From contig OZ242172.1 of the NCBI GenBank assembly GCA_965205645.1, positions 896,122-960,121 on the forward strand: DNA of 64,000 bases, written 5' to 3'. This stretch comes from Bdellovibrionales bacterium (lineage in GTDB: Bacteria; Bdellovibrionota; Bdellovibrionia; Bdellovibrionales; UBA1609). Below, piece after piece: positions 1 through 58,206 of the stretch. Below the pieces are notes generated by a model. The model searched no databases and was not told where the DNA came from. It worked only from the letters and a program-made list of their open reading frames with translations. The position numbers and the translations under genes are program-made. Position 1 is the first letter of the stretch. Each line of letters starts with the position of its first letter.

Positions 1-403
1 CAATTCAGTGATATTTGGATGAGCAAAAAACTTAGAATATATATTTAATATCTTATCTTTATATTTTTTCGTAGGAAGCTGATGCACACTATGAAATAAT
101 TGGTTTGTATTAAGTACAGTATTGCTTGAACTACTCATAATAATTTCAAACAGTTCCCATTGTGCAAGAATAATTATATAATGTTTAAACAAACCTTTCC
201 ATGCAATCTCATCACCTTCCCAAAAAAGATTAGTAAGGTTTTCCACTGGATCATTCAGTTCTTCTGGAGAAGGAAAGTAAATTTCTTCTTTTTCCAATTC
301 TTTATACTGGAAGATATGACACAGTTTACGAAAACGATATAAATAAGGAGGCTCTAATAATTTATTTTTAGATAAACTGTTAATTATATGTTCGTTTTTC
401 ATA
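1..403 (-). CDS. DUF2971-family protein (partial; 3' end lies outside the window)
   Basis: My own minus-strand translation from the ATG at 403..401 (RBS AAGGTGA upstream) stays open to the window edge: MKNEHIINSLSKNKLLEPPYLYRFRKLCHIFQYKELEKEEIYFPSPEELNDPVENL... The LYRFR...EIYFPSP.ELNDP.E pattern is the DUF2971 signature. It is absent from the ORF track because there is no stop in the window. Confidence 0.6.
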
Positions 404-1625: not shown

Positions 1626-3074
1626 ATGAAAATGACAAAATCTACCTCTTCAAAAAATCTTAAGTCTATCCTTAAGAAAGGGGAAAACTATAAGACTGAG
1701 TTCAAGGAAAAAATAGATAGACTTGATAAAGAGATAGTTGCCTTTGCCAACTCTTCTGGCGGGCAAATTTACATTGGTATTACAGATGAAGGTAAAATAA
1801 AAGGAGTAAATATTACAAACAAGCTGAAAAGCCAGATAGAAGATATTGCTAAAAATTGTGATCCAAGAATTCCTATTGCACTCCAAGTAATACAAAAAAA
1901 GAAAATTTTAATAGTAGAAGTGAAAGAGAGTAAGAATAAACCTCATAGATGTTCTTCAGGTTTTTATATTCGCTCTGGAGCTTCTTCTCAGAAACTAAAC
2001 ACAGAGGAAATAAGAGATTTTATGGAAGATGAAGACCTTTTAAATTTTGATAAGGTTCCTTGCAAAGAATTTGATTTTAAAAAAGACTTTGATAAAGAAA
2101 AATTGTTTTCATTCATGGATAGGACAGGAATAAAATATAGCAGAAGAACCTATATTCAACTACTGGAAAAACTCAAAGTTTCAAAAAGACAAAACTCAAA
2201 AGTTATTCTTAATAATGCAGGAGCTTTGTTTTTCTCTAAAGACTTAAGCAGGATTTATTTTCATACAGAGATAGCTTGCGGGGCTTTTAAAGGAAAAGAC
2301 AAAGTTATTGTTCTCGATAGTGCTCGGTTTAATACAGATTTAATTGAAAATGTAGAAGGAGCTATGAGTTTTTTATGGAAAAACTTAAGAGCAAGACATG
2401 AGCTTATTCCCAGAAGCACACGAAGAATAAATGTTTTGGAAATCCCTGCTGATGCTCTAAGAGAAGCTTTAATCAATGCTGTAACTCATAGAAACTACAG
2501 AGTTCGCGGTGTATTTATACAATTGGAAATCTATGATGACAGAGTTGAAATTTCTAATTTTGGAGGACTTCATAGAGAGTTAAAAAAATCAGAATTTGGA
2601 ACAAAAAGTGTTACCAGAAATCCATTGATAGCAGCTCTTATGTTAAGAGCCGGGCATATTGAACAAATGGGAACAGGAATTAAAAAGATGAGAGATTTAG
2701 TTAAAAAAGAGGGGTTACCTCCTATTAAATTCAAATTTACCAATTTCACAACATTAACATTTTATAGACCCCCCTATCCATTAAGTAGTTTTATTGCGCC
2801 GTCTGTAAAAGTATATGAAGCTTATAATAAAATTCTCAGCATAAAAGGGAAGCAATTAGATAGAATATTAAAGATATTAAATGCCATAGAGAATAAAGAT
2901 TTTTCTGCAACTTCTTTTAGTAAAGTGGAAAATGTTAATCCAAGAACAGTAGAAAGAGATATACAATTCTTAAGAGATAAGAAATTTATATTCTTTAAAG
3001 GCCACTCTAAATCTGGAAAATATCAAGTCACTGAAAAATATAAGAAATTAAAAAAATCTATCAAACAAAAATAA
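1626..3074 (+). CDS. AlbA_2 (Schlafen-like divergent AAA) + HATPase_c_4 domain putative DNA-binding/ATP-binding protein
   Basis: The N-terminus (GENYKTEFKE...IVAFANSSGGQIYIGITDEGKIKGV) is the AlbA_2 signature. The middle (EALINAVTHRNY...IYDDRVEISNFGG) matches the RecG-like C-terminal HATPase_c_4 region. The C-terminal tail looks like a winged helix. Confidence 0.75.
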   Translation: MKMTKSTSSKNLKSILKKGENYKTEFKEKIDRLDKEIVAFANSSGGQIYIGITDEGKIKGVNITNKLKSQIEDIAKNCDPRIPIALQVIQKKKILIVEVKESKNKPHRCSSGFYIRSGASSQKLNTEEIRDFMEDEDLLNFDKVPCKEFDFKKDFDKEKLFSFMDRTGIKYSRRTYIQLLEKLKVSKRQNSKVILNNAGALFFSKDLSRIYFHTEIACGAFKGKDKVIVLDSARFNTDLIENVEGAMSFLWKNLRARHELIPRSTRRINVLEIPADALREALINAVTHRNYRVRGVFIQLEIYDDRVEISNFGGLHRELKKSEFGTKSVTRNPLIAALMLRAGHIEQMGTGIKKMRDLVKKEGLPPIKFKFTNFTTLTFYRPPYPLSSFIAPSVKVYEAYNKILSIKGKQLDRILKILNAIENKDFSATSFSKVENVNPRTVERDIQFLRDKKFIFFKGHSKSGKYQVTEKYKKLKKSIKQK

Positions 3075-4168: not shown

Positions 4169-4440
4169 TAGTTTCAGTTTCCTTTCTATTATAGATTAAT
4201 ATAACTTTTCAGACAGCGCGATGTATTCTGCATTCTTCCCTATTTTAGGGAAATTACTTTTGAGTTCGTCTAAAATTTTTTTATCATAATAATATAATAT
4301 CTTATTTTTAGGAAAATTCCAGTTTAAAATCTGTCACAACTGTTCGGGATAATCAAAAATATAATTTAATTCTTTTTTATTATTTTCTATATGCTGAGTT
4401 ATATAGTTATTGTTTTTCTAAGAATCTTTAGGTTGCTTTA

Positions 4441-5835
4441 TTAGTAAAAGTGGTTATTTGGTTTAAGTTTAGCTTTAGCAATTCCACGATTACGATAAAA
4501 AAAGGCATAATCAGGTTTTAATTCAATAGCTTTACTACAATCATTTATTGCATCTGCATGCTGACCTAAGTGTGATTTAGTAATTCCACGGTTATTATAA
4601 AACAAAGCTTCATTAGGTTTTAATTCAATAGCTTTGCTAAAATCATTTATTGCATCTGCATGCTGACCTAAGTGTGATTTAGCAATTCCACGACTATTAT
4701 AAGCCATGGCATAATCAGGTTTTAATTCAATAGCTTTACTACAATCATTTATTGCATCTGCATGCTGACCTAAGTGTGATTTAGTAATTCCACGGTTATT
4801 ATAAAACAAAGCTTCATTAGGTTTTAATTCAATAGCATTATCGTAATCATCTATAGCATCTGCATGTTGACCTAAGTGTGATTTAGCAACTCCACGACTA
4901 TGATAAGCCATGGCATAATTAGATCTTAATCCAACAGCTTTATTGCAATCATCTATAGCATCTGCATGCTGGCCTAAGGATGATTTAGCAATTCCACGGC
5001 TATTATAAATATTCGCATTATTAGGATCTAAATTAATAGCCTTGTCAAAAACCTTAATAGCTTCTTTGTATTTTCCTTTTTTAATTTCAGTGTTAACTTG
5101 ATGTTCAGCTTCTTTCATTAAAATTTTACCTCTACGAAACTCAATCTGAGCTGATGAATAATTTTCAGGTATAATAATGTTGTGTTTTATAAGAAATTTT
5201 TTGTCAGATGCTTTTCTTGCATTAAGCAATCTCATTCCCACATCTATAATAAACTGAGTCCAATTGTTGTCAGAAGCAACAAGAAAAGGCACATTAGATG
5301 ATGTAATAGGTTCACTAACAAGTGTAATAGTAGTACCCATTATATTATCTTTTCTTTTTTCTGGGTTAATAATATGAGCTCCTTCTTTATCTGCTATATG
5401 ATTTAAAATCATATGAAGTGTTTGGAGTTTTGACTTATGATAAAGAAGAGGTTCATCCAACCACTGGTTAAGACTTACCAAATTACTTTCACCAATTGCT
5501 TTATGCAGTATATCCACTCGATTCAAGTAAAAAGCAGATGTGACCGTGTGGCTATTGGATTCAGTTTTCTTTGTGTTTTCTCGAGGGTTTAAAAAAGATT
5601 GTAACAATATATCTGCACCATCACCATAATAGAGTTCAAATAGAGACTTATTATTCTTTTTTCCTTTTTCAATAAAGGTTGCTGGTGCATTCTTGTCTAA
5701 AAGTAATTTCCTCAATTCTACTGCTACGGTACGATACACTGAATTATCTTCCTCAAAGACATAAGCTTTGATATTTCTTTTTATAATATTAATGGAATCT
5801 TGCACTCCTCTTTTCAGCTCAAACATTTCACTCAT
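4441..5835 (-). CDS. TPR-repeat protein with an unassigned ~230-aa N-terminal domain
   Basis: 464 aa with RBS AGGAG. The C-terminal half has about seven consecutive 34-aa TPR units (NSRGIAKSHLGQHADAI.D..KAIELKP...). The N-terminal half matches no family I recognise. Confidence 0.8.
   Translation of the reverse strand: MSEMFELKRGVQDSINIIKRNIKAYVFEEDNSVYRTVAVELRKLLLDKNAPATFIEKGKKNNKSLFELYYGDGADILLQSFLNPRENTKKTESNSHTVTSAFYLNRVDILHKAIGESNLVSLNQWLDEPLLYHKSKLQTLHMILNHIADKEGAHIINPEKRKDNIMGTTITLVSEPITSSNVPFLVASDNNWTQFIIDVGMRLLNARKASDKKFLIKHNIIIPENYSSAQIEFRRGKILMKEAEHQVNTEIKKGKYKEAIKVFDKAINLDPNNANIYNSRGIAKSSLGQHADAIDDCNKAVGLRSNYAMAYHSRGVAKSHLGQHADAIDDYDNAIELKPNEALFYNNRGITKSHLGQHADAINDCSKAIELKPDYAMAYNSRGIAKSHLGQHADAINDFSKAIELKPNEALFYNNRGITKSHLGQHADAINDCSKAIELKPDYAFFYRNRGIAKAKLKPNNHFY
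4504..4911. repeat. intragenic 204-bp tandem duplication (two TPR pairs) inside the TPR gene
   Basis: The string GGCATAATCAGGTTTTAATTCAATAGCTTTACTACAATCATTTATTGCATCTGCATGCTGACC... starts at both 4504 and 4708 (offset 204 nt). The first ~125 nt of the two copies are identical. Confidence 0.9.
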
Positions 5836-6105: not shown

Positions 6106-6246
6106 TTTTTGCGTGATATTTGCGTGATTCTCTGGTTACCAGAGGTTATGGACGGTTATTCCCAACATGAAAAGGCAATGTTTTGTTGAGTTTTTAGCTT
6201 ATTTTCCACTCTCGAACACTTTGTCCTCTATCCGCTTAACTCCTAC
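6106..6246. repeat. dispersed degenerate ~130-150-bp intergenic repeat, copy A
   Basis: Shares the ordered motifs TTTTGCGTGATT.TC, AGGTTAT..., GTTAT..., AAAAGG, T-rich block, TTATTTT with the copies at 7081 and 8631. Confidence 0.5.
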
Positions 6247-6356
6247 AAAATATAAAAACATATGAAACTATGGTAGGTATTTAAAATATGCTAACCTCAA
6301 ATATACAAAAGAAATTTAAAAAGCTGAATATTCACTCTATATATTCAGAACCTTGA

Positions 6357-7014
6357 CTCATCCAAAAAAACACTATTATTTATATTGATGGCTTTAATCT
6401 TTATTATAGTTTAAAGAACACTTCTTTTAAATGGTTAAATTTTCGGAAATTATCTGATTCTTATCTAAATCTGGAACAACACCAAATAACAAAAATCAAA
6501 TACTTCACAGCATTAGTAAAAAGAACCTCTAATGATAATTTAAATATCATCAAACAGAATATATATTTGCGTGCTGTTAAGACTCTGCCTGATTTAGAAA
6601 TTATCTTTGGCCAGTTTAAAAAAAGACAAGTAAGAGGAGTTCTTTGTGATTATGAAGATAGAAAGCAATTAAAAAAAGATATTGTTAAAGTTCAAAAATG
6701 GGAAGAGAAAATGTCGGATATTCATATAGCCACTCATGTTGTTGCTGACGCATACCAGAATAAATGCGAATGTGCTGTTTTAATCTCCAATGATGCAGAT
6801 TTAACTCCACCATTATTACATATCAAATAGACTGAAGAAACTTGTGATAGTAATCAGCCCTTATAAAAAGATAAGTGCGGAATTAAAAAGGTCCTCTCAT
6901 TTCTATAAGGCTGTATCTCCTAAAATTTTAGAGCAATGCCAATTTCCAGAGAAGATGAGAGATGCCAAAGGGGAGTTTTTCTGTCCTCCAAAGTGGAAAA
7001 AGGCCGAGTATTAA
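6357..7014 (+). pseudogene. NYN-domain (LabA-like) protein gene, frameshifted and lacking a canonical start
   Basis: Frame 0 reads ...KNTIIYIDGFNLYYSLKNTSFKWLNFRKL...IKYFTALV...IYLRAVKTLPDLEIIFGQFK...EKMSDIHIATHVVADAYQNKCECAVLISNDADLTPPLLHIK*. The protein continues in the +1 frame from 6832: LKKLVIVISPYKKISAELKRSS...CQFPEKMRDAKGEFFCPPKWKKAEY*. No ATG, GTG or TTG lies between the upstream in-frame stop (6354) and 6567. Confidence 0.65.
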
Positions 7015-7080
7015 ATGAAAGAACAACCCGTCTTGTCCCTGTTGTCTCCACCAAACGGGGGACGGGATTTGAACGGGATA

Positions 7081-7262
7081 CTACGGTTAGGAGAGGTTAT
7101 AGACGGTTATCAACGGGGTGCAAAAGTGAATTTTAGTTTAACGATTTAGTTATTTTTGCCTTTTGAACCCCATTTCGTTTCGCCTACTCTCTCCACCATT
7201 TACCTTAATAAGCGCTTAAATAAGGTCCTCAGAGAGAACAATTTTTTTTGCGTGAATTTCCA
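7081..7262. repeat. dispersed degenerate intergenic repeat, copy B
   Basis: AGGTTATAGACGGTTATCAACGGGGTGCAAAAGTGAATTTTAGTTTAACGATTTAGTTATTTTTGCCTTTTGAA aligns with copy C. A TTTTTTTTGCGTGAATTTCC motif follows at 7243. Confidence 0.5.
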
Positions 7263-7270
7263 AAAAGAAT

Positions 7271-7312
7271 AAAAACAACTAAACTGTTTTAAATAAACAG
7301 TTCAGTTGTTTT
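7271..7312 (-). terminator. Rho-independent terminator of the tandem CpxP/Spy-like gene
   Basis: Arms ACAACTAAACTGTTT (7275-7289) and AAACAGTTCAGTTGT (7295-7309) form a ~15-bp stem with one mismatch. On the minus strand the stem is followed by a T run, about 65 nt after the stop. Confidence 0.55.
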
Positions 7313-7376
7313 ATAATGATTTTTCAAATAGCAGAGACTGTTTTTTCTACTGTATCTGCCATTTTAAAAAATTTTA

Positions 7377-7931
7377 TTATTTTTTCTTATTTTTATGTCC
7401 AGAATGTTTCTTATTCTTATGCCCAGAATATTTATGTTTGTATTGTTCAAAACATTTAGAGAGAGCAGCTCTTTGTTCTTCCGTTGTAGCAATTGTTTCT
7501 AAAACGTTTTGCCGAAATGTGGACCATGCAGCTCGTCTGTCTTCTTTATTCATATCATGAGTGGAGGATTTAACATGGTTGCGCATTTCTATCATTTTTG
7601 CTTTTTGTTCGTCAGAAAGTCCCGCTTCTTCCGGACAGAATTTTTTTCTTCTTTCCCCTTTGTGTTTATATTGTTCAAAACATTTAGAGAGAGCAGCTCT
7701 TTGTTCTTCCGTTGTAGCAACTGTTTCTAAAACGTTTTGCTGAAATGTGGACCATGCAGCTTGTCTGTCTTCTTTGCTCATATCATGAGTGGAGGATTTA
7801 ACATGGTTGCGCATTTCTTTCACTTTTGCTTTTTGTTCGTCAGAAAATCCCGCTTCGGGACAGAAATTGGAGCGTGCATATACTGATGCTGTGAAAAAAA
7901 ACAGGCAAATGATGATAACATTTGTTTTCAT
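7377..7931 (-). CDS. secreted CpxP/Spy-like (LTXXQ-type) protein with two tandem domains and a His/Lys-rich tail
   Basis: Signal peptide MKTNVIIICLFFFTASVYA. Two ~77-aa repeats each carry CPEAG(F/L)SDEQKAK...TTEEQRAALSKCFEQYKHK, that is two xxxEQ (LTXXQ-like) motifs per domain. The tail reads YSGHKNKKHSGHKNKKK. RBS AAGGAG. Confidence 0.6.
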   Translation of the reverse strand: MKTNVIIICLFFFTASVYARSNFCPEAGFSDEQKAKVKEMRNHVKSSTHDMSKEDRQAAWSTFQQNVLETVATTEEQRAALSKCFEQYKHKGERRKKFCPEEAGLSDEQKAKMIEMRNHVKSSTHDMNKEDRRAAWSTFRQNVLETIATTEEQRAALSKCFEQYKHKYSGHKNKKHSGHKNKKK

Positions 7932-29170: not shown

Positions 29171-30157
29171 ATGAAAAACAAATTTCATATGAGAAATAGA
29201 TCTCATATAAGGAAAAAACCAACTTTTAGTCATGACAGTTTTTTTAAACATTTTTATTCTGATCCAAAGCTTGCTCAAGAATTGTTACAGCTTATCTTTT
29301 CAAAAAAGGAGCTCTCTGCTTATGATTTACAACAGTTAAAAATAGAAAAAGACAGCTTTGAAGATAAAAGAGTTGATCTTATTTTTTCTATTCCTTTTAA
29401 GGTTCAGCCTAAAATTAAACTGGAGCTTTTAGTTCTTTTAGAACATAAATCGTTTCATGATAAAAATTTATTTAGCCAGCTTTTAAAATACCAAGTCTTA
29501 GTTCGGGAACACAGCATCCAACAAAGGGGTTATCCTCAGCCTATCATTCCTGTGCTATTTTATCATGGGAAGCAGCCTTTGAAGTGGAGAAGATCTCTTC
29601 AGGAAGAGGATTTTAAGTCCTTGTTTTCTAAGATTCCTGTTGAATCCAGAAAACATATGTTAAACTATGAGTTAAAGATAATAAACACTCAGGATTCAAA
29701 GGTACGAGAAGCTTATAAAGGTCATCAATTAAAAGGTCGTGGTGTTATAAGGCTGTTATCTGAGGTATGGAGTATAAAGAAACCTACTCCATTAAAAGTA
29801 AAGGAAGTGTTTACTGAATTTGAAGACATATTAAAAAAATTAAAAGGCAAGAAAAAAGAAGAGATGAGTTTAAGGATAGTTCAATACTTGATAGATAATA
29901 CAGGGTTAGACTTTAAGACGTGGAAAGAAGCTGAAGAATTAATGATAGAAGAGGGGATTTTAACGAGGGGAGGTGTTATGGACATCAGAGAGTTTATTAA
30001 AGAACAAGGTCGTTGGGAAGGTCGGCAACAGCTTATTTTAAATATGCTGAAAAAGAAGGTAGATATTGCTTTTATTTCAGAGGTAACAGGATTGTCTGAA
30101 AAAGAAATAAAAAAGCTTAAGAATGGTTCTGATTCGAGGATAGCGGGTCGCCGCTAA
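29171..30157 (+). CDS. Rpn/YhgA-like recombination-promoting nuclease (PD-(D/E)XK, Transposase_31 family)
   Basis: HDSFFKHFYSDPKLAQELLQ...RVDLIFSIPF...LLVLLEHKSFHD...LLKY...PIIPVLFYHGK..W matches the Rpn family pattern. The last codons run into a repeat copy. Confidence 0.8.
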   Translation: MKNKFHMRNRSHIRKKPTFSHDSFFKHFYSDPKLAQELLQLIFSKKELSAYDLQQLKIEKDSFEDKRVDLIFSIPFKVQPKIKLELLVLLEHKSFHDKNLFSQLLKYQVLVREHSIQQRGYPQPIIPVLFYHGKQPLKWRRSLQEEDFKSLFSKIPVESRKHMLNYELKIINTQDSKVREAYKGHQLKGRGVIRLLSEVWSIKKPTPLKVKEVFTEFEDILKKLKGKKKEEMSLRIVQYLIDNTGLDFKTWKEAEELMIEEGILTRGGVMDIREFIKEQGRWEGRQQLILNMLKKKVDIAFISEVTGLSEKEIKKLKNGSDSRIAGRR

Positions 30158-30311
30158 TACTTGCTTGGCGAAACATAATTTACAAGATAGTGGCAATAAC
30201 GTAAATGAAGTCGCATCGAAAATGTCTCCCGCGACTCGCGGGCATAATTTACAAGATAGTGACAATAATGTAAATGCAGCCGCGTCGAAGCATCCTCCCG
30301 CGATCCGCGGG
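30140..30311 (+). repeat. GC-rich modular repeat: partial unit + 2 x 69-nt units downstream of the Rpn-like gene
   Basis: 69-nt units start at 30174 and 30243: CATAATTTACAAGATAGTG(G/A)CAATAA(C/T)GTAAATG...CCCGCGA(C/T)(T/C)CGCGGG. The HNLQ reading frame stays open across both although the locus is intergenic. Confidence 0.9.
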
Positions 30312-31948: not shown

Positions 31949-31972
31949 TGTGTATATGATTGGCAAAGTTAT

Positions 31973-32102
31973 AACATGTATGCAGGGAATCGCAACGCCG
32001 GCAGGTTGCCGGTGACATTTATTTGTAAACATGATTTACACAGTTGTAACATTCGTGCAAAAAATCGCGGCGAAATGTCAGTGGCAACTTGCCGCCGCGG
32101 GG
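31973..32102 (+). repeat. two degenerate GC-rich modular repeat units
   Basis: AACATGTATGCAGGGAATCGCAACGCCGGCAGGTTGCCGGTGACA and AAACATGATTTACACAGTTGTAACATTCGTGCAAAAAATCGCGGCGAAATGTCAGTGGCAACTTGCCGCCGCGGGG both follow the box 1/box 2 consensus. Confidence 0.65.
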
Positions 32103-34692: not shown

Positions 34693-35028
34693 ATGGAAAT
34701 GGAAGGACAGAAAATACGCATTCGTCTTACTGGGTTTGATCACAAGCTATTGGATCAATCTGCTCGTGGCATTGTGGATACTGCCAAAAGGACTGGTGCG
34801 AACGTAGCCGGCCCTATTCCCTTACCGGTCAAAATCAATCGTTATACTGTTTTACGCTCTCCTCATGTGAATAAAAAATCTCGGGAACAGTTTGAAATTC
34901 GTTGTTATAAGCGATTATTAGAAATTTCAGAACCAACGTCTCAGACGATCAATCAGTTGATGAAATTAGATTTACCAGCTGGTGTGGACGTTATTATTTT
35001 TACAGGAAGTTCCAATGAAAAAAAATAA
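34693..35028 (+). CDS. rpsJ: 30S ribosomal protein S10
   Basis: [18 protein letters not shown]...[17 protein letters not shown] identifies S10. It heads the S10 operon. Confidence 0.95.
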
Positions 35029-35836
35029 ATCAGAAAATAAATCGGTTGCTCCAGTGAAAACAGAGCATCCGGTGACTAAAAAAATAAATGAACAACCGGA
35101 GCCTCAAAAGACGTTTAAAGAGACAAAGTCTAAAGAAGTTTCGTCAACGGCAGAGTCTTCAAAGCAGACGGTTCCAGCTCATTTGAAGTTATCAGGTTTA
35201 TATGCATTTAAATTGGGTATGTCTGCTATTTATGATGACAAAGGTATTTTTGTTCCAATTACTGTTTTACAGTTTCGTCCCTGGCTAGTTTCTCAGGTGA
35301 AAACAATGGATAAAGATGGTTATTGTAGTGTTCAATTAGCTTGTGGTCCTCAGAAGAATAAGAGGTGTTCAAAATCACTGATCACTCATTTATTAGCTGC
35401 GGGTTTTAAAGAAGGTGCCGCTTATGTACGGGAGATTCGTCAAAAATTATCTGATGATATAAAAATTGGTCAGTCTGTATCCATTCATTCATTGCAAAAA
35501 GGGGATGTCGTGACTTTAAGTGGTGTGTCTAAGGGTTGCGGTTTTGCAGGTGTGGTTAAAAGGTGGGGTTTTAAAGGAGGACCGGCTTCTCATGGAGCAA
35601 AAAAACATAGAACTACCGGTTCAATAGGTAATCGAACGGAACCAGGTCGTGTCATGCCTGGCAAGAAAATGCCTGGGCACAAAGGTGCGCGTCGGGTCAG
35701 CTTACGTAATGTAAAAGTAGTGAACGTAGTGGAAGATCAGCAATTAGTGATTATAAAAGGAGCTGTGCCTGGGGCGCGAAACTCTTTGGTGTATTTACAT
35801 AAAACCGGAATTGCCAGGAGTGTAACCAGTCAATGA
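35015..35836 (+). CDS. rplC: 50S ribosomal protein L3 (possible ~57-aa N-terminal extension)
   Basis: The L3 core starts at ...[26 protein letters not shown]. The ATG at 35015 overlaps the rpsJ end and gives a K/E/S/T-rich extension. The TTG at 35183 (MKLSGLYAF...) is an alternative start. Confidence 0.85.
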
Positions 35837-36678
35837 TTAATGCAACAATTTGTAATTGGAAAAAAGAGACGGTGGGAAATGTAAATTTACCATCGGAGTG
35901 GTTTGAACAGGAATTAAATATGCATTTGGTGAATGAAGTCGTTCGTTCACAACGAGCGGCACGTCGTTCAGGTACGCACAAAGCAAAAACACGTGGAGAA
36001 GTCAGTGGTGGTGGTAAAAAACCGTTTCGCCAAAAAGGTACGGGGAATGCCCGTCAAGGATCTATTCGATCTCCATTGAATGTAGCAGGTGGTAAAACAT
36101 TTGGCCCTCGTCCTAGAAAGTATGCTTATGCATTACCAGCTAAAATGCGCCAAAAGGGATTAAAGCAAGCTTTATCTTATCTGTGGAAACAAAATAAAAT
36201 TTTTATTATGGAAAACATGCAATCATCCAGTGGAAAAACAAAAGAGTTGGCTCTTCAGTTAAAAAATTTAGGACTGCAGAAGGCTTTGTTAGTAGATGTC
36301 GAAGGAAATGCTTTATTTAAGCGGGCATGTGCCAACTTATCATCCTTTCAGTTTCTACCGGCTAAAGCTTTAAATGTATACGATGTATTAAGGTATCAAT
36401 ACTTAGTAATCAGTAAAGAAAGCATTGTGTTTTTTAAGGATAAGCAAGTGAATAAAAAGAAAGAATCACAAATAGTATCCGATGGCGAAAAAAATGAAAA
36501 AGTAGCACCAATGAAGAATCAAATTGCTAAGCCTTCATCGGCGCAAGATACTGATTCAACATTCAGTCAGCAAATGAGTCATCAAAAGGGGTTAAAAAAT
36601 CCAGTAAGTCATAGTAAAAAATCTTCTCTGACTCAGGAGCGTGGTGATGTTAAGAAGTCACTGCGAACAAAGTCATGA
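35833..36678 (+). CDS. rplD: 50S ribosomal protein L4 with ~75-aa C-terminal extension
   Basis: The L4 core (SGGGKKPFRQKGTGNARQGSIRSP) is followed by a Lys/Ser-rich tail from about residue 205. Total length is 281 aa. Confidence 0.92.
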   Translation: MINATICNWKKETVGNVNLPSEWFEQELNMHLVNEVVRSQRAARRSGTHKAKTRGEVSGGGKKPFRQKGTGNARQGSIRSPLNVAGGKTFGPRPRKYAYALPAKMRQKGLKQALSYLWKQNKIFIMENMQSSSGKTKELALQLKNLGLQKALLVDVEGNALFKRACANLSSFQFLPAKALNVYDVLRYQYLVISKESIVFFKDKQVNKKKESQIVSDGEKNEKVAPMKNQIAKPSSAQDTDSTFSQQMSHQKGLKNPVSHSKKSSLTQERGDVKKSLRTKS

Positions 36679-39663: not shown

Positions 39664-40230
39664 TTGATGAAATATGCAGAGATAAAAAATTTAGAAATAC
39701 GAGAACTTTACAAACGTTTAGTGCAGACTCGGCGGGCTTTGTTTGCAGCGAGGATGAAGCATAAAATGAAACGTCTTTCTAATGTCATGGAATTGAGGTA
39801 TTTGCGACGGGATATTGCTCGTTTGCAATTTGCTTTATCCTTAAAGCCGTTTGTTCATGTGCCTTCTAAAAAAGAAGCAGTGGTGGAAAGTGCTACTGTA
39901 CATGAAAAAGTAAAAACAGTGCAAAAATCACTGCCGGTTGTAGAAAAAAAACAAGATACAAAAAAGGCGGATAAAGATACTGTCGATTTAAAACATAAAG
40001 TTCGTGTGGTCCACAAAAAAAGTCAGCAAAGTAGCCGTATGGATTCCAAATTAGATCCTCAAAGTAAAAATATTTCTACTCGTTCAACTCAAATGAAGCC
40101 TCGCTTAAGAAGTTCATCACCTATGAAGAAAAAAGTTGCTTCTAGTGCGCCAGTTCAGCAAGGTGGGTTAGCGAAACGTTTTGGTCGTTTATTTCAATGG
40201 GGTAAAAAAGATTCTAAAAAAGGTAAATAG
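39664..40230 (+). CDS. rpmC: 50S ribosomal protein L29 with ~120-aa Lys-rich C-terminal extension
   Basis: The first ~65 aa are L29-like (EIKNLEIRELYKRLVQTRRALFAARMKHKMKRLSNVMELRYLRRDIARL). A basic low-complexity tail follows. The start is the TTG at 39664 or the ATG at 39667. A 100-nt gap separates it from rplP. Confidence 0.85.
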   Translation: MMKYAEIKNLEIRELYKRLVQTRRALFAARMKHKMKRLSNVMELRYLRRDIARLQFALSLKPFVHVPSKKEAVVESATVHEKVKTVQKSLPVVEKKQDTKKADKDTVDLKHKVRVVHKKSQQSSRMDSKLDPQSKNISTRSTQMKPRLRSSSPMKKKVASSAPVQQGGLAKRFGRLFQWGKKDSKKGK

Positions 40231-44235: not shown

Positions 44236-44447
44236 CGTATGTGATTAGGGACTTAAAGGCATATAGTAGCAGTGAGCAACGGGAAGTAAGAGCATCATTG
44301 AGAGACTAGTAACCGTATGTGATTAGGGACTTAAAGCATATCGTAGCAGTGAGCAACGGGAAGTAAGAGCATCATTGAGAGACTAGTAACCGTATGTGAT
44401 TAGGAACTTAAAGCATATCGTAGCAGTGAGCAACGGGAAGTAAAAGT
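44236..44447 (+). repeat. 2.7 tandem copies of a 77/78-nt unit forming the rplO-secY spacer
   Basis: Units start at 44236, 44314 and 44391: CGTATGTGATTAGG(G/A)ACTTAAAG(G)CATAT(A/C)GTAGCAGTGAGCAACGGGAAGTAA(G/A)AG... The third copy ends at the secY ATG and carries its RBS (GGGAAG). Confidence 0.95.
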
Positions 44448-48398: not shown

Positions 48399-49394
48399 AT
48401 GTCACTTGTCATACATAGAGAATATTTATCGCTTAATTATGATCCGGAAGAGATTCCTGTGGCATTTTTAGTGTTACATTATACGGCAGCCAGTTTATCT
48501 GGAACGTTGCGAATCTTTCAAAATCCTCGTTCTCGCGCCTCTTGTCATTTAATTTTAGATATGGATGGTTCTGTGTATGAATTAGTTCCTTGTTTGGATG
48601 GAAAGTGTTTAAAAGCCTGGCATGCCGGGGAAAGCTATTGGCCCGTGTCGACAGTTGATGTGCATAATTTGCAAGGTAGCGACAATAACGTGAAAGAATC
48701 TGCGGCAAAAATGTCCTCTATGACCCGCGGGGCACAGAAATCTGCGCAGACGCTTACTGGTAAACATGATGTGCAAGGCAGTGACATAGGTGCAGGGAAT
48801 CGCGGCGGCGGTGAGTCGCCGCAGACGCTTACTGGTAAACATGGTGTGCAAGGCAGTGACATGGGTGCAGGGAATCGCGGCGGCGGCGAGTCGCCGCAGA
48901 CGCTTACTGGTAAACATGGTGTGCAAGGCAGTGACATGGGTGCAGGGAATCGCGGCGAAGTATCCCCCCCGATTCGGGGGTTTAATGGGTTTTCTATTGG
49001 TATTGAGTTAGTTAACAGGAACGGCAATTTATTTCCTTATACAAAGGCGCAATATCGTTCTTTGGCTTTAATATGTAAGAGGCTACAGCGCTATTATAAA
49101 GCTCTATGTAACCCTGAGCGTGTTTTAGGGCACGAGCATATTGCGGGGTATAGGGGCAAGGTGGATCCGGGGCATTGTTTTGATTGGTCTTTATTTTTTA
49201 AAATGAGCTATGGATCATCAGATATTTTAAATAGAGAGCCAATTTTATCTAGTGAAGCTTGTAGCCGATTTTCGGAGTTATCTTCTCGGTTTTTGAGCTT
49301 AGGAGGTTGTCGGGACAAAGATTGGGTGCTATTAAATCGTCAGATGGAGCAGGCAGCTCAGTTAGAGCAGGCTTCTGCTCATTCACATCGTTGA
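48399..49394 (+). CDS. ampD: AmpD-like N-acetylmuramoyl-L-alanine amidase (Amidase_2) carrying a 106-codon in-frame repeat insertion
   Basis: LVLHYTA, HLILDMDG.VYELV, AWHAGESYW [insert] FNGFSIGIELVN...Y....Y..L......L......VLGHEHIA..RGKVDPG..FDW. Confidence 0.85.
   Translation: MSLVIHREYLSLNYDPEEIPVAFLVLHYTAASLSGTLRIFQNPRSRASCHLILDMDGSVYELVPCLDGKCLKAWHAGESYWPVSTVDVHNLQGSDNNVKESAAKMSSMTRGAQKSAQTLTGKHDVQGSDIGAGNRGGGESPQTLTGKHGVQGSDMGAGNRGGGESPQTLTGKHGVQGSDMGAGNRGEVSPPIRGFNGFSIGIELVNRNGNLFPYTKAQYRSLALICKRLQRYYKALCNPERVLGHEHIAGYRGKVDPGHCFDWSLFFKMSYGSSDILNREPILSSEACSRFSELSSRFLSLGGCRDKDWVLLNRQMEQAAQLEQASAHSHR
48663..48980 (+). repeat. GC-rich modular repeat array inside the ampD-like gene
   Basis: One 69-nt-type unit (CATAATTTGCAAGGTAGCGACAATAACGTG...GACCCGCGGGG) is followed by 75-nt units starting at 48747, 48822 and 48897. 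The array ends GGAATCGCGGCGAAGTATCCCCCCCGATTCGGGGG. The total is 318 nt, or 106 codons. Confidence 0.95.
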
Positions 49395-51837: not shown

Positions 51838-53048
51838 AACTCTTTTACCTGTTGAGCAATATTTTTTAAATGTTTTTCATTATCTGGCTTTTCCAAAGCT
51901 TGATGAATCCATTGGGCAATATATTTCATTTCTGCTGTTCCCATTCCTCGTGTAGTCACTGCTGGAGTTCCTATGCGAATGCCGCTGGTGACAAAAGGTG
52001 ATTTTGTTTCACCCGGCACTGTATTTTTATTAACTGTGATTCCAGCTTGTTCTAAAACGCGTTCTGCTTTTTTTCCTGTGATATTTTTATTAGAAAGATC
52101 AATTAAAATCAAATGATTATCCGTGCCACCAGTGACTAAAGAAAATTCATAATTGATCAAATGTTTAGCTAATATTTTTGCATTAGAAACAACAGTTTGC
52201 GCATATTTTTTAAAGGAATCTTGTAAAGCTTCTTGAAAGGCAATCGCTTTTCCAGCAATGGTATGCATTAAAGGTCCACCTTGTATGCCAGGGAAGATGG
52301 ACGAGTTTAATTTTTTACTGTTTTTCATAGGACAAAGGATAAGCCCTCCTCTCGGGCCTCTTAGTGTTTTATGGGTAGTGGAAGTGACAAAATCTGCATA
52401 GGGAATGGGGGAGGAGTGTACGTTTCCGGCGACTAGTCCGGCAAAGTGTGCCATATCTACGATGAGAGTTGCTCCCACTTGGTCTGCAATTTGTCGGAAG
52501 TTTTTAAAATCAAGTGTTCGTGGGTAAGCACTGTACCCTGCAATGAGTAGGCGGGGTTTTTGCTTTTTAGCTTGTTGTTCAATGTGGTTATAATCCAACC
52601 AACCGGTTTTTGGATCTGTTTGATAAGAAGTGGATCGAAATATAAAACCGCTAAAATTAACAATGGATCCATGTGTTAAATGTCCACCACAAGATAGATC
52701 CATTCCCATAATGGTATCACCAGGTTTGGCTGCGGCAAAGTATACTGCCATATTCGCTTGTGATCCGGAGTGTGGTTGAACATTTGCATATTCTGCTGAA
52801 AATAATTTTTGTGCACGGGCAATAGCTAATGTTTCACAAATATCTACAAATTTGCAGCCACCGTAATATCTTTTACCTGGATAACCTTCCGCATATTTGT
52901 TCGTTAGTATGGAACCCTGTGCTTGTAGAACAGCAGTAGAGGTGTAATTTTCAGAAGCGATTAACTCTAAACCATTTTTTTGCCGTGCTTTTTCTTGTTC
53001 AATCGCTTGAAAAATTTTCGGGTCAATGTGTTGCAAACCAGTTTTCAT
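51810..53048 (-). CDS. glyA: serine hydroxymethyltransferase
   Basis: [18 protein letters not shown], and [12 protein letters not shown] (PLP lysine). I chose the ATG at 53048, directly after the rpiB stop, over the GTG at 53060. Confidence 0.96.
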
Positions 53049-53536
53049 GTGTTCTTCCACCGATCTATTTGCTGTACTCTTTTCAAATGTCGTCCTTTTT
53101 TAAAAGGGGTGCAAATAAAAGTTTGTAAAATTTGATGGGCCATTTTACGAGAAATTAACCGCGCTCCTAGGCATAATACATTTGCGTTATTGTGTTCTCT
53201 GGCCAATTGCGTACTTTCTACATTCCACACTGCTGCTGCTCGGATGCCACTAAAGCGATTAGCTGCCATCGCCATTCCTTGTCCACTACCACAAATAAGG
53301 ACTCCTTTACCTCCATCTTTTTTTATTTTCCGGCAGAGTGTCTGTGCAAGCTGTGGATAATTGCTTTTTCGTTCATTGTGCACTCCCAAATCTTCCCAAC
53401 ATTGCTCCGGATTTTTCTTTATTAAAAAATTTTTTAGCAAAAAACCTGCATGATCATTTGCAATAAAAATTTTTCTCCCTTCAAGGGGGGAGTGATTTCG
53501 CCGCGATTCTATTGCATCTATTTCACTGTTTTGCAT
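53045..53536 (-). CDS. rpiB: ribose-5-phosphate isomerase B with repeat-derived 20-aa N-terminal extension
   Basis: The RpiB core is [14 protein letters not shown]...[22 protein letters not shown]...[16 protein letters not shown]. The only canonical in-frame start (ATG 53536) lies inside a copy of the GC-rich repeat. Confidence 0.88.
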
Positions 53537-53545
53537 ATTATGTTT
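53475..53545 (-). repeat. single terminal-type unit of the GC-rich modular repeat overlapping the rpiB 5' end
   Basis: The minus strand reads AAACATAATATGCAAAACAGTGAAATAGATGCAATAGAATCGCGGCGAAATCACTCCCCCCTTGAAGGGAG, that is box 1 + box 2 + hairpin. Confidence 0.85.
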
Positions 53546-53816: not shown

Positions 53817-54587
53817 ATGAAAACAAGAAAATGGTTACTGATATACACATCACTGCTACTGCTAGTGCTAATGAACTGTCAGGTGTTTAAAGCAAATAGA
53901 AAGCCGCAATCTGCAGGTTTTAGAGGGTATTGCCCCAATTGTTTAGTAAAAAGTATTGGTAAAGATGTAAAACAACTGCAAAAAATAATACAAAAAAGTA
54001 ATCTAAAATTAGTTGATCATCAGCCTGTTCAAACTCCTCCTATCGATCGTTCTAGTAACAGTTCTCATACATGGTCATGCTCGTTTGCCTGCGAATGGTT
54101 TAAAAATGGATCAAGAGATGGATACATTATAACAAAACACGGTAGCTCCACAAAAGAGGTAGTGCTGGCAGCACAAAATAAATGCCGGACAGACACTGAT
54201 TATAAAGGGGTTCTTATTGACAATCTAGTATGGGGCAGCTACGAGCGTTTTATTCCTCTTCAAATCAGCATTCGTAGTTCTTGTTCCAAAAATTCTACCT
54301 CCTCTCAGCCCCAGCGTTTCTCTTGTATAGCTTATTCCGCAGAGGTTGTTCCTGTACATGTCGCAAATCATTACCATGATGGCTGGCTTTGGAATAATTA
54401 TACAGTTCCTGTTATTAGGAATAAAATTTTTAAGAATCTTGAAGTGTCTTCTGGACCGACTATGAAGGAAGCCTTTAGTCAATTGATGAGTAACAAACAG
54501 TATCGCACTTTGATTGTATCCAGCAGTGTACACTATACAGAAATTGTTCCTGTGAAATCTCCAGAAGAAGTTTGCGTCCAGAATTAA
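53817..54587 (+). CDS. lipoprotein sharing only the long-form leader module of the VPNFA-IHK family (P4, chimeric)
   Basis: The first ~70 aa are homologous to P2, P3 and P6: LMNCQVFKANRKPQSAGFRGYCPNCLVKSIGKDVKQLQKIIQKSN. The remaining ~185 aa are an unrelated Cys-containing domain. Confidence 0.75.
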   Translation: MKTRKWLLIYTSLLLLVLMNCQVFKANRKPQSAGFRGYCPNCLVKSIGKDVKQLQKIIQKSNLKLVDHQPVQTPPIDRSSNSSHTWSCSFACEWFKNGSRDGYIITKHGSSTKEVVLAAQNKCRTDTDYKGVLIDNLVWGSYERFIPLQISIRSSCSKNSTSSQPQRFSCIAYSAEVVPVHVANHYHDGWLWNNYTVPVIRNKIFKNLEVSSGPTMKEAFSQLMSNKQYRTLIVSSSVHYTEIVPVKSPEEVCVQN

Positions 54588-57022: not shown

Positions 57023-57365
57023 ACCCCCAAAGGGGCCGCCCCCAGAGGGGGTGACTTCGCCGCGATTCCGCTGCTTCCATGTGACAACTTTGCATATCAT
57101 GTTTACCAATAATGTCTCCGGCGACCCGCCGCCCCCAGAGGGGGTGACTTCGCCGCGATTCCGCTGCTTCCATGTGACAACTTTGCATATCATGTTTACC
57201 AATAATGTCTCCGGCGACCCGCCGCCCCCAGAGGGGGTGACTTCGCCGCGATTCCGCTGCTTCCATGTGACAACTTTGCAAATTATGTTTACAAGTGTCT
57301 CCGGCGACCCGCCGCCCCCACGATTCCGTTGCACGCATGTCACTATCTTACAAATTATGTTTAAC
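57023..57365 (-). repeat. intergenic array of the GC-rich modular repeat: 3 x 93-nt units + one terminal unit (reverse orientation)
   Basis: A 93-nt periodicity was verified at 57044, 57137 and 57230. On the minus strand each unit reads AAACAT(G/A)AT(A/T)TGCAAAGTTGTCACATGGAAGCAGCGGAATCGCGGCGAAGTCACCCCCTCTGGGGGCGGCGGGTCGCCGGAGAC... Confidence 0.95.
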
Positions 57366-57429: not shown

Positions 57430-58206
57430 TTATTCTGAATCGGATTCTGTATTTTTATAAATGATGGCTGCTACACCTTTTACTGCATCTGTTACAGTGT
57501 AACAGATGGAACCAATCATCGTTGCCATAGAAAACAGTATATTTCCATGTAGCCTACCTAACTTGGTGACTAATTTATTGATTTTTCTATTTCTTTCTAT
57601 AGAGTCCTCTGGCCAATCATCTCTAATATGCTTTCTAACCTGTTCAAACTGATAAGAAAAATGTGCCGAGGAAACTGCTGAGCTTGCTCCCACAACAGCT
57701 GCGGTTGCGCCTTTGTTCGTAGGGTAAGATGTATGTTCATTATCAGTCATTGCATGACGACTGCCTGCACCTAAGGCACACACTGCAAATCCACCTGCTA
57801 CGTATTTCCACGCAGATTTATGAATATGGGATTTATCATTATTATTGAGGACAATATTATTTTTAGCCACCTGCCTAAGCTGGTTTAAATATTGATCGGG
57901 GCAGGAAGGAAGATCCAATTGCCTTGCTATAGAAGATATTTCTTGATCAAATTCATTTGTTGGATGGCTGGTTTTTGTGTTGCTTAGTTTAGCAAAATTC
58001 GGCACTAGATCCGGGTGGTTTATTAAGTCTATGTGACAAACTGGTGTTCCTTTTTTATCTAATACAATAGCTGAACGTACGGGAATCCGTGTTTTATCTG
58101 CTGAATATTGTAATATTTCGTTATTTGCTTGATAGTTTCTCCATCCTGGTAGCACTAGCAGTAATGATAGTAAGTAAATAATCAAAGATAATTTTTTTAT
58201 TTTCAT
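57430..58206 (-). CDS. VPNFA-IHK paralog family member P5, short form
   Basis: 258 aa. LPGWRNYQ, VRSAIVLDKKGTPVCHIDLINHPDLVPNFAK, DLPSC..YLNQL..VAKNNIVLN...SHIHKSA, FAVCALGAG, and the tail SICYTVTD. Confidence 0.8.
   Translation of the reverse strand: MKIKKLSLIIYLLSLLLVLPGWRNYQANNEILQYSADKTRIPVRSAIVLDKKGTPVCHIDLINHPDLVPNFAKLSNTKTSHPTNEFDQEISSIARQLDLPSCPDQYLNQLRQVAKNNIVLNNNDKSHIHKSAWKYVAGGFAVCALGAGSRHAMTDNEHTSYPTNKGATAAVVGASSAVSSAHFSYQFEQVRKHIRDDWPEDSIERNRKINKLVTKLGRLHGNILFSMATMIGSICYTVTDAVKGVAAIIYKNTESDSE

Follow-up and report, generated by a model that had tools for sequence, protein, structure and literature searches.

An in-frame array of a dispersed, hairpin-bearing repeat in an AmpD-like amidase gene, probably filtered by selection and not adapted as a peptide

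The gene for an AmpD-like amidase in the 64-kb stretch of DNA analysed here (the window) carries, at the tip of a surface β-hairpin, an in-frame array of short GC-rich repeats that recurs at other genic and intergenic loci. We consider it likely that this array is a lineage-specific, dispersed and modular selfish repeat, RPE-like/MIRU-like, which is filtered by selection and not adapted as a peptide. In the course of events that we propose, one copy would have landed on the hairpin tip, and the array would then have gained and lost steps of 75 nt (25 codons), presumably via slippage or unequal recombination. The insert would be transcribed and translated together with the gene, giving a hydrophilic, disordered peptide rich in Gly, Ser, Asp and Asn, and the amidase, whose core is under purifying selection, would retain its activity. 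Genic copies would persist only where they are inserted sense and in a single frame, because no other frame is both stop-free and hydrophilic.

The AmpD-like host gene and the insertion site

The array is hosted by the following gene:

48399..49394, + strand: AmpD-like N-acetylmuramoyl-L-alanine amidase gene, an intact open reading frame of 331 aa

The earlier note had proposed an in-frame invasion of this gene by a repeat element, and this is borne out: the frame is intact, and the match of the protein to Pfam Amidase_2 (PF01510; 5.9e-24) is split into two stretches. The residues expected of an AmpD with the Amidase_2 fold are all present, namely the zinc ligands His, His and Asp (H27, H245 and D256), the catalytic Glu (E203) and the Lys (K254), and these five residues are invariant among 61 homologues. 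Against the NCBIfam AmpD equivalog NF008758, the protein scores 73 bits and an insert-free ortholog (P0003) 95 bits, both under the cut-off of 143 bits, and 'AmpD-like' is thus the safe name. The top Foldseek match of the modelled protein is C. freundii AmpD (2Y28/2Y2B), with a TM-score of 0.72–0.74; in AmpD, the 'activation' regions have been named r1–r4 (PMC5036320). A terminator scan of the gene found no terminator-like site.

The insertion site is the tip of a β-hairpin between the AWHAGxSxW strand and the FNxFSIGIE strand. These two motifs had been described as adjacent in typical AmpD, which does not strictly hold, since a native β-hairpin of 8–16 residues lies between them in 57 of the 61 homologues. 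Orthologs have QAEGREWRR at what is here the left junction and no repeat-like sequence there, and the native second β-strand (..EWRRF) of the window amidase has been replaced by element sequence. Modelling with and without the insert had been suggested earlier as a check: in the AlphaFold model of the window amidase the core has pLDDT values above 90 and residues 89–183 have values below 50, and the model of the insert-free ortholog has a confident β-hairpin where the insert sits. The insert is thus predicted to be a disordered surface-loop excursion from a zinc-amidase core that stays folded. The same AmpD loop contains different GC-rich repeats in two other lineages, and a GSD motif occurs in the insert that a distant relative carries in this loop; the AmpD β-hairpin may have been struck independently in at least three lineages.

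Anatomy of the array

The insert is about 320 nt long, with a GC content of 0.58–0.62 against 0.37 for the window, and is built from one 69-nt unit, joined by a linker to 2.8 copies of a 75-nt unit, and closes with a C/G hairpin:

48645..48662, + strand: left junction, coding PVSTVD-V, which takes the place of the first strand or turn of the native hairpin
48663..48731, + strand: 69-nt unit, with the core CATAATTTGCAAGGTAGCGACA followed by a decayed CCCGCG..CGCGGG hairpin; peptide HNLQGSDNNVKESAAKMSSMTRG
48732..48764, + strand: linker of 33 nt, GCACAGAAATCTGCG and then CAGACGCTTACTGGTAAA (the 3' box of a 75-type unit); peptide AQKSAQTLTGK
48765..48914, + strand: two full 75-nt units, counted from the core (Tandem Repeats Finder period 75; nhmmer E = 1e-24)
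48915..48980, + strand: terminal unit, a shortened third 75-nt unit, with core, GGAATCGCGGCG, AAGTAT and terminal hairpin; peptide HGVQGSDMGAGNRGEVSPPIRG

The composition given earlier, one 69-nt unit and three 75-nt units, is right for the 69-nt unit, but the 75-nt units are two full ones and a shortened third that carries the terminal module. Nor does the 69-nt unit directly precede them, as the linker stands between it and the first 75-nt core; the core-to-core spacing across this linker is 102 nt, a multiple of 3. Of the boundaries previously set at 48663 and 48980, the left one probably lies some 11 nt further upstream, near 48652, because TTGAT..CAT is common to ampD and to the array in xth, described below. 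The repeat alignment pairs 48652–48731 with 24550–24629 in xth, and the left junction is probably a degenerate linker or left end of the element (..CAGTTGATGTG running into CAT, compared with ..CATTTGATAAA running into CAT in xth).

The 69-nt unit matches the 69-type profile with an nhmmer E-value of 1.9e-20 and corresponds to the xth units at 24561–24767, read in the same frame (HNLQGSDNNV...). In the 69-nt unit of the ampD gene of a sister strain, the hairpin is better preserved (CTGCG ACC CGCGG). Each 75-nt unit is made up of the core CATGGTGTGCAAGGCAGTGACA, the box GGAATCGCGGC, a GC hairpin (GGCGGCGA-G-TCGCCGC) and the box AGACGCTTACTGGTAAA, with stems at about 48808–48822 and 48883–48897, and each full unit encodes the peptide HGVQGSDMGAGNRGGGESPQTLTGK. 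Tandem Repeats Finder reports 2.8 copies at 48745–48957 (97% matches, score 405), and the units are 96–100% identical to each other, which points to recent local amplification. The terminal hairpin, CCCCCG-ATT-CGGGGG at 48966–48980, pairs 48966–48971 with 48975–48980 and is the only structure (6 bp) in the DNA fold of the terminal unit, whose peptide directly abuts F195 of the amidase.

A dispersed repeat family

The repeats belong to a family found at about eight loci in the window, both genic and intergenic, and matches to the core pattern CATNNTNTGCAARGNAGTGAC number 15 against an expectation of 0.01 for the window. A family unit comprises the core box CAT-NNT-NTG-CAA-GGN-AGT-GAC-A, the box GGAATCGCGGCG and a short GC hairpin; unit lengths are 69, 72, 75 and 93 nt, and arrays end in a C5-7/G5-7 hairpin. 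Apart from ampD, the loci in the window are:

24253..24296, + strand: lone degenerate unit upstream of xth, between divergent genes (nhmmer E = 1e-4)
24561..24830, + strand: array in xth (exodeoxyribonuclease III, 24408..25436), three 69-nt units and a terminal unit in the same frame
28925..29046, + strand: degenerate intergenic copy with both hairpin types
30120..30311, + strand: end of a YhgA-like (Transposase_31) gene, made up of its C-terminal tail and stop codon, then two intergenic 69-nt units
31955..32097, + strand: two AT-decayed units of the 72/75 type in a convergent intergenic region, adjoining a nested 120-nt element
53478..53545, − strand: single terminal-type unit at the start of rpiB (53045..53536, − strand), providing the ATG and the first ~22 residues of RpiB
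57035..57363, − strand: intergenic array, one 72-nt unit and 93-nt units

The match of the xth product to TIGR00633 (263 bits) is, like that of the amidase, split into two stretches, and the Pfam LacAB_rpiB match starts at residue 23 of RpiB. At the 57-kb locus, the 93-nt unit equals 72 nt plus a 21-nt terminal-type hairpin, and the first unit of the array has an in-frame TAA. The nested element at 31831–31949 is distinct from the repeat family and has perfect terminal inverted repeats of 20 nt.

That one element is read in the same frame in xth and in the amidase, as had been stated from the first reading of the sequence, is confirmed, and further in-frame hosts can be added to these two and to the start of rpiB. 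Within this 1.556-Mb genome they are a PilM-like protein, gamma-glutamyltranspeptidase (ggt, at four separate sites) and an ATP-grasp-like protein, the ggt and ATP-grasp-like loci having been picked up by a search with the frame-1 peptide; in the sister strain they are murF (two sites) and an uncharacterised 471-aa protein (L084 869..2284). Element copies are thus present in at least 7 genes besides ampD, plus 5 intergenic loci. The same terminal module closes the arrays in xth, rpiB, the 57-kb locus, ggt, murF and the 471-aa protein. A match in a DUF7507 surface protein (P0125), which came up when the insert peptide was used in a full HMMER scan, was rejected as a false positive.

The host is most closely related to MAGs that carry the label Bdellovibrionales in NCBI. 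The exact core-to-GGAATCGCGGCG pattern had no matches in the GTDB species genomes, a collection that does not include the source genome, and the strict pattern had none in the JGI metagenomes. A looser pattern gave nine matches in the latter, all of them attributed to chance, on GC-rich contigs that lack the core. An Rfam search returned no family match at E ≤ 1. We call the element 'mobile' on the basis of its distribution. Unlike a MITE, it shows neither terminal inverted repeats nor target-site duplications at 11 junctions, and no cognate transposase was found: the scan of 28 window ORFs with Pfam detected no Y1 (RAYT) transposase domain, the sole transposase-like ORF in the window being the YhgA-like one.

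Conservation of the hairpin and variation between strains

What is conserved in the family is a feature of the nucleic acid. Across 19 units, all six pairs of the hairpin have compensatory double changes, the observed value being reached in none of 500 shuffles, and 98.2% of cells in the stem are paired. This structure is local: single and terminal units fold to a 5–7 bp hairpin only (z −1.6 to +1.0), and the RNA fold of the whole ampD array is no better than that of shuffled sequences (z = 0.06). A comparison of codon positions among copies had been proposed earlier to see whether the translated frame is constrained. The variants of the 75-nt unit have 2 synonymous and 6 non-synonymous changes, third positions being neither in excess nor the most variable; the core is thus conserved at the nucleotide level, and it is the nucleic-acid hairpin that is kept.

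The sister strain is 96–97% identical, and its contigs are labelled with only 4–5x coverage, so that some of the strain differences given here may be sequencing errors. Its ampD array has 5.8 units of 75 nt where the window has 2.8, and the amidase ORF is uninterrupted in both strains despite these unequal lengths. The 57-kb locus consists of 72 + 93x3 in the window and 72x2.6 in the sister strain, and an extra unit upstream of rpiB distinguishes the strains compared. Between the two strains, the amidase flanks differ by 8 synonymous and 4 non-synonymous changes (dN/dS 0.13, purifying selection), whereas the insert has 0 synonymous and 7 non-synonymous changes (dN 0.094), a contrast with a Fisher p of 0.013. 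On our best reading, the insert peptide would have no conserved function, the boxes and the hairpin being what is conserved, at the level of nucleic acid.

Reading frame and orientation

All 11 genic sites are in the sense orientation, with the CAT of the core in codon phase 0, in a small census that drew on 64 kb from this genome and ~56 kb from its sister strain. Three to four of the other five frames are also stop-free. Frame 1 is hydrophilic (GRAVY about −1), whereas the other open frames range from less hydrophilic to hydrophobic, at −0.54 to +1.2, those of the 69- and 75-nt units specifically being at +0.2 to +1.2. The earlier suggestion that the element is either adapted, or filtered by selection, to be tolerated as a peptide is thus favoured in its second half, by the single hydrophilic frame, the uniformly sense genic copies and the TAA in intergenic DNA, and not supported in its first, given the replacement pattern of the ampD insert, third codon positions that are not the most variable and a conserved feature that lies in the nucleic acid. 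Core-to-core spacings are nevertheless all multiples of 3, intergenic arrays included; the spacing outside genes is a hint of adaptation, the one sign of it that remains. Units that are multiples of 3 outside genes too, and genic copies that are all sense despite open antisense frames, make up a pattern more regular than passive filtering by itself would clearly lead one to expect.

Two other accounts of orientation were considered and set aside. A link to replication was rejected, as GC skew is positive throughout the window, yet the minus strand carries the copies at 53 kb and 57 kb. The idea that intergenic copies point the same way as the genes beside them was dropped, most of these sites being divergent or convergent and thus uninformative.

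Alternative explanations

The single frame at all genic sites, the recurrence of HxLQ[GS][SR]D in unrelated hosts, with GSD in the AmpD-loop insert of the distant relative, and unit lengths that are multiples of 3 even outside genes would all suit a functional module, selected on several enzymes as a disordered linker or tether, as an interaction or localisation motif around H-x-L-Q-G-S-D, or as a spacer tunable by copy number. We regard such a module as improbable, since near-identical strains differ in the ampD insert by replacement changes exclusively and the core shows no third-position excess. The downstream half, moreover, is read in two frames among copies (GAGNRGGGESP and GAAESRRRRVGGD), intergenic copies occur, one of them with a stop, and the insert combines very low model confidence with a two-fold gap in copy number between strains. 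The proposal that ampD has become a pseudogene, decaying as the genome shrinks, and that the array marks a gene that is no longer important draws on the small (1.56 Mb), AT-rich and repeat-laden genome and on the swap of the native second β-strand for element sequence. It is nonetheless very improbable, given a reading frame that is intact in two strains, constrained flanks, catalytic and zinc residues that are all invariant and a core that is confidently folded in the model; genes for peptidoglycan metabolism (murD, murF, mraY, PBP and an M23 peptidase) also occur nearby in the lineage.

Removal of the insert before the enzyme matures, through an intein, a self-splicing intron or translational bypass, would yield a wild-type-like enzyme. 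Nothing direct speaks for it, although GC-rich hairpins could in principle form RNA structure, and we find it hardly credible: Rfam and the fold of the array give no sign of such an RNA, intein junction residues are absent (the insert starts PVSTVDVH after W and ends PPIRG before F), no folded domain of Hint size is present, length changes in 25-codon steps between strains and identical units lie in intergenic DNA. The near-identity of the 75-nt units would also be expected if the array were a local duplication of native ampD sequence by intragenic slippage, with no dispersed element involved. The probability of this is close to nil, being already contradicted by dispersal, as the core, boxes and terminal hairpin occur at other window loci and in other genes, and orthologs have no such sequence.

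Comparison with known repeats

A filtered selfish repeat has close parallels in the Rickettsia palindromic elements (RPE). Both are small repeats of a reduced, AT-rich genome that occur between genes as well as in frame within many conserved enzymes unrelated to one another; both use a single frame and place a hydrophilic peptide at the protein surface (here by prediction) of hosts whose genes are under selection. The product of an RPE-containing gmk is translated and active, and its insert is regarded as neutral or mildly deleterious (Ogata et al. 2000, 2002; PMC2229807, PMC10969869). The architecture, however, differs. RPE is a single unit of 105–146 bp with terminal inverted repeats of ~12 bp and a long end-to-end stem-loop (PMC2229807), whereas the present family consists of direct repeats of 69–93 nt with a local hairpin of 5–7 bp and no end-to-end pairing, forms tandem arrays that vary in copy number from one close strain to another and is much more GC-rich than its genome. 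It is set apart from RPE on these grounds and on its host, a lineage labelled 'Bdellovibrionales' in NCBI and not Rickettsiales, rather than on sequence comparison with RPE-1..10.

Mycobacterial interspersed repetitive units (MIRU-VNTRs) have units of 40–100 bp at tens of loci, often in tandem and with strain-variable copy number (Supply et al. 1997; PMC3184786). They share with the present repeat dispersed tandem units, GC-rich internal inverted repeats and open reading frames, and they are transcribed together with adjacent genes and extend into the ends of these, which may be compared with the start of rpiB and the tail of the YhgA-like gene. MIRUs, on the other hand, lie between operon genes of a GC-rich genome, whereas most copies found here fall within coding domains. 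The host is unrelated to Mycobacterium, and the repeats are not related in sequence. REP/BIME elements (repetitive extragenic palindromes) likewise have a short, GC-rich, imperfect palindrome kept as a hairpin and arrays with conserved linker boxes. REPs, however, are extragenic, 21–65 nt long, often alternate in orientation and are mobilised by RAYT, whereas the units here are direct within an array, occupy at least 11 intragenic sites and have no RAYT among the scanned ORFs. Housekeeping proteins of Plasmodium falciparum carry hydrophilic, disordered, repeat-derived insertions in surface loops, in an AT-rich genome, which expand and contract through slippage; those insertions are AT-rich (Asn/Lys) and do not derive from a dispersed DNA element with a hairpin, whereas the repeats here are GC-rich.

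Significance

It is possible, though we think it rather unlikely, that the family is a previously undescribed class of 'codon-phased' hairpin minisatellite, copied or maintained by an active, strand-aware process or having a real role at the RNA or protein level. Units that are multiples of 3, genic copies that are sense and in one frame and compensatory change in the hairpin would together imply an active, strand-aware mechanism, for which an Rpn/YhgA-type nuclease or transcription- or translation-coupled insertion would be candidates. If this were true, the loops of housekeeping enzymes would be systematically remodelled across a whole uncultured small-genome lineage.

Under the preferred reading of a dispersed selfish repeat filtered by selection, the finding bears on a phenomenon, in-frame selfish repeats in conserved enzymes, that has since 2000 been largely a Rickettsia/Wolbachia curiosity. 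The present family is an independent case in an unrelated, uncultured, small-genome lineage and has a different architecture, of tandem, copy-variable units with a covarying hairpin; the phenomenon is thus convergent. For annotation it serves as a warning, as such inserts split domain matches and depress family scores. With close strains that have three versus six units in one loop, and several enzymes with one to four inserts, it also provides a cleaner natural experiment, in which the tolerance of loops, the way disordered regions arise and the movement of non-autonomous repeats can be put to the test.

An AmpD-like amidase carrying a repeat array

The intact 331-aa ORF at 48399..49394 (+) is matched in two pieces by Pfam Amidase_2, with a GC-rich segment between them. 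The best PDB matches of the modelled protein are Citrobacter freundii AmpD crystal structures (TM 0.72-0.74), and the zinc-binding and catalytic residues H27, E203, H245, K254 and D256 are invariant in a 61-sequence alignment. The window protein and an insert-free ortholog alike score below the cut-off of the NCBIfam AmpD equivalog, and 'AmpD-like' is therefore the proper naming level. The closest relatives lie on Bdellovibrionales MAG chromosomes of 1.3-2.3 Mb.

The repeat insert recognized in the earlier note is real and far beyond chance. Its GC content is 0.58-0.62 against 0.37 across the window, Tandem Repeats Finder reports a 75-nt period at 48745-48957 (2.8 copies, 97% identity), the 69-nt unit at 48663-48731 shares its family with the 69-nt units (3.3 copies) of the exodeoxyribonuclease III gene xth (24408..25436; TIGR00633, 263 bits, match split by the insert), and the core pattern CATNNTNTGCAARGNAGTGAC has 15 matches in the window versus 0.01 expected. 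The 69-nt unit and the 75-nt period described earlier both stand, but the array holds two full 75-nt units and a truncated third with a terminal hairpin rather than three units; a 33-nt linker, absent from that description, follows the 69-nt unit, and the left edge is probably near 48652 and not at 48663.

The two amidase motifs flanking the insert had been taken to be adjacent in typical AmpD, whereas in homologues a beta-hairpin of 8-16 residues separates them. Insert-free orthologs (216-222 aa) have QAEGREWRR, or similar, in place of the window protein's 112 residues. Modelling with and without the insert had been proposed earlier. AlphaFold2, run on the 61-sequence alignment, places a core with pLDDT above 90 on either side of the insert and gives residues 89-183 a pLDDT below 50, and the insert-free ortholog P0003 (mean pLDDT 93.5) shows a confident two-stranded beta-hairpin (E80-83, E86-89) exactly at the insert site. 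On these models, the array would thus sit in place of the tip of a surface hairpin and of part of its second strand.

The loop is permissive to repeats in other lineages too. A relative with about 40% AmpD identity, from another lineage (L002 6216-6400; P0027/P0121), carries in the same loop a different 75-nt repeat, whose core is GGAAGTGACATCAAT and whose hairpin is CCCTGCGCGCGAGGG; its translation again includes ..GSD.. (..QSVGGSDIN..), and a single 5-residue repeat sets P0121 apart from P0027. A third lineage (L083 5247-5303; P0014) has 21-nt GGGGCTTTGCCCC hairpin repeats there.

Element anatomy

Alignment of units at all loci defines a conserved core, CAT-NNT-NTG-CAA-GGN-AGT-GAC-A, followed by a box, GGAATCGCGGC(G), and then by one of two continuations. 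The internal one is a short GC hairpin, e.g. GGCGGCGA-G-TCGCCGC, then AGACNCTT..GGTAAA, leading into the next core; the terminal module is AAGT.., C5-7, a loop and G5-7. In the 69-nt type the second half is swapped for ..AACGT..GCAAAAGTGTCC and a CCCGCG-ACT-CGCGGG hairpin, and the 93-nt type extends the 72-nt one by a 21-nt hairpin of the terminal type. Inspection of the junctions revealed neither terminal inverted repeats nor a visible target-site duplication.

A hairpin of 5-7 bp is the only fold of single units, and the array as a whole shows no structure beyond that of shuffled sequence (z = 0.06). The internal hairpin is kept by compensatory substitutions: both sides have changed in 6/6 stem pairs, 98.2% of cells are paired versus 77% in shuffles, the observed covariation was reached by none of 500 shuffles, and slid registers collapse. 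The peptide over the hairpin, on the other hand, varies freely (GGGESP, GAAGLAG, RRRQVGG, GADARAG), and in some copies a 1-nt indel puts the downstream half in another frame (GAAESRRRRVGGD) before phase is restored. Constraint acts on the nucleic acid, not on the protein.

Genomic distribution

The DNA survey took in the whole 64-kb window plus some 56 kb from a sister strain.

Copies of the element in the window
24253 (+): degenerate copy upstream of xth
24561-24830 (+): array inside xth
28925-29046 (+): intergenic degenerate copy
~30120-30311 (+): end of a YhgA-like Transposase_31 gene (C-terminal tail and stop codon), with two intergenic units after it
31955-32097 (+): intergenic AT-decayed copy
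48652-48980 (+): array inside ampD
53478-53545 (-): RpiB ATG and first ~22 residues (Pfam domain from residue 23)
57035-57363 (-): intergenic array

In rpiB (53045..53536, -) the annotated start codon is element-derived, and no canonical start codon lies between element and domain. The YhgA/Rpn-like putative transposase (PF04754; 29171..30157, +), the one gene in the window seen to resemble a transposase, has a tail (..NGSDSRIAGRR*) and stop made of element sequence, and the two units directly after it are of 69 nt. Several copies adjoin members of a family of paralogous putative lipoproteins (22407-24121, 27945-28742, 53817-54587, 57430-59539, 60866-61690), which share the N-terminus MKIK..L..CQM..K.QSAG..YCSNCLV and have no Pfam match.

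A full HMMER scan of the insert peptide against 1.84 billion representative proteins gave three further hosts, probably from the same genome as the window: a PilM-like protein (five 69-type units), a gamma-glutamyltranspeptidase interrupted at four separate sites, and an ATP-grasp/TTL-like protein. On the sister-strain contigs, murF has two further sites and a 471-aa protein has one. This murF is called as two overlapping ORFs (L084 5479..6270 and 6209..7468), each with an element insert; the split reflects either a frameshift or an assembly error at low (5x) coverage. Pattern scans of GTDB species genomes and JGI metagenomes returned zero true copies, and judged by these collections the family is confined to this lineage.

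Reading frame and orientation

The same element frame in ampD and xth, pointed out in the earlier note, extends to all 11 genic sites, which are all in sense orientation and have the CAT of the core at codon phase 0. The 69-nt unit is open in frame 1 only of the sense strand and in all three antisense frames; the 75-nt unit is open in sense frames 1 and 2 and in two antisense frames. Five of the sites (both in murF and those in xth, rpiB and the 471-aa protein) come from an unbiased DNA search, and with about 1/4 open options each, the chance that all five are sense and in phase 0 is ~(1/4)^5, or ~0.001. Frame 1 is the sole hydrophilic frame (GRAVY -0.94 and -1.01; 3 hydrophobic residues in 23-25), whereas the other open frames of the two units have GRAVY -0.54 to +1.20 and 8-11 hydrophobic residues and are often Cys-rich. 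Furthermore, one intergenic unit contains an in-frame TAA. This usage is as predicted by a selective filter on peptide tolerability. A residual oddity under the filter is that core-to-core spacings are all multiples of three, even in intergenic arrays (69, 72, 93).

Strain variation and selection

Sister-strain locus L001, taken from an ENA metagenome assembly, runs collinear with the window at 96-97% identity.

Differences between the window and the sister strain
ampD array: 2.8 copies of the 75-nt unit in the window, 5.8 in the sister strain
57-kb locus: 72 + 93x3 in the window, 72x2.6 in the sister strain
Upstream of rpiB: a single unit in the window, an extra degenerate unit and ~190 nt in the sister strain

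Between the strains, the amidase-coding flanks show 8 synonymous against 4 non-synonymous substitutions (dN/dS 0.13), and the 102 orthologous nt of the insert show 0 against 7; dN in the insert (0.094) exceeds the flank value twelve-fold (Fisher p = 0.013). Coverage of the sister-strain contigs is given as 4-5x, a caveat on these differences, but the low flank dN/dS suggests that most are real. Distinct variants among the 75-nt units comprise 2 synonymous and 6 non-synonymous changes. Constraint thus falls on the enzyme and not on the peptide. The suggested comparison of codon positions gave no sign of constraint on the translated frame either, since ten core codons in 19 units have entropy sums of 6.41, 4.43 and 4.28 by position, with no third-position excess. 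Of the earlier proposal that the peptide is adapted or filtered, the data favour the filter; the substitutions in the insert lend adaptation no support. A selected function of the repeat peptide is likewise unlikely in view of this substitution pattern, the alternative frames and the predicted disorder.

Removal of the insert as an intein or intron, which the earlier note had set against a tolerated peptide, finds no support: Rfam gave no match, junction residues and structured RNA are both lacking, and the insert changes length in 25-codon steps. That ampD is a pseudogene is contradicted by an ORF intact in two strains, by the flank dN/dS and by the retained catalytic residues, and the dispersal of the element contradicts an origin through local slippage alone.

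Other repeats and unusual genes

Between rplO and secY, the intergenic space (44236-44443; L001 5690-6052) is taken up by tandem 77-nt units of another family, 2.7 copies in the window versus 4.8 in the sister strain. A further element of ~120 nt, unrelated to the first and with perfect 20-nt terminal inverted repeats (TTTCTCTGCTTAAAAATTTT ... AAAATTTTTAAGCAGAGAAA), lies at 31831-31949, nested between two cores of the main repeat; its homologues in the sister strain lie in frame inside murF (L084 6530-6650) and ggt (L084 10375-10500), where they would read as ..LKSSDMRFA..KAELVL... An iteron-like 12-nt unit, GGTCTAAATGTC (x7.6, 3077-3169), directly follows a Schlafen/AlbA_2-HATPase_c_4 gene (1626..3074). 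There are also 102-nt repeats (4372-5167) inside a TPR protein gene (4441..5835, -) and 1.9 copies of a 228-nt repeat (7431-7856) in ORF 7377..7931 (-). Ribosomal proteins L3 (284 aa, 34982..35836), L4 (281 aa, 35833..36678) and L29 (188 aa, 39664..40230) far exceed their usual length, with Lys/Ser-rich N- or C-terminal extensions unrelated to the repeat element.

Relation to known repeat families

The covarying GC hairpin recalls REP/BIME sequences, which are extragenic and dependent on RAYT transposases; a Pfam scan of 28 window ORFs found no Y1 transposase. Tandem, copy-number-variable GC-hairpin units overlapping gene ends are also a property of mycobacterial MIRUs, but MIRUs are intergenic (PMC3184786), whereas the element here also lies within enzyme genes. 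Rickettsia palindromic elements (RPEs) are selfish repeats found in frame in many conserved enzymes, and the gmk product containing one is translated and active (PMC2229807, PMC10969869). Fused in frame in conserved enzymes, our element appears to behave functionally like an RPE, yet it lacks the end-to-end palindrome and terminal inverted repeats that define RPEs and MITEs structurally. Given this RPE-like behaviour, the MIRU- and REP-like traits and the departure from each definition, the element can be filed as a new family that adds an architectural variant to a known phenomenon, that of repeat elements tolerated in frame in protein genes.
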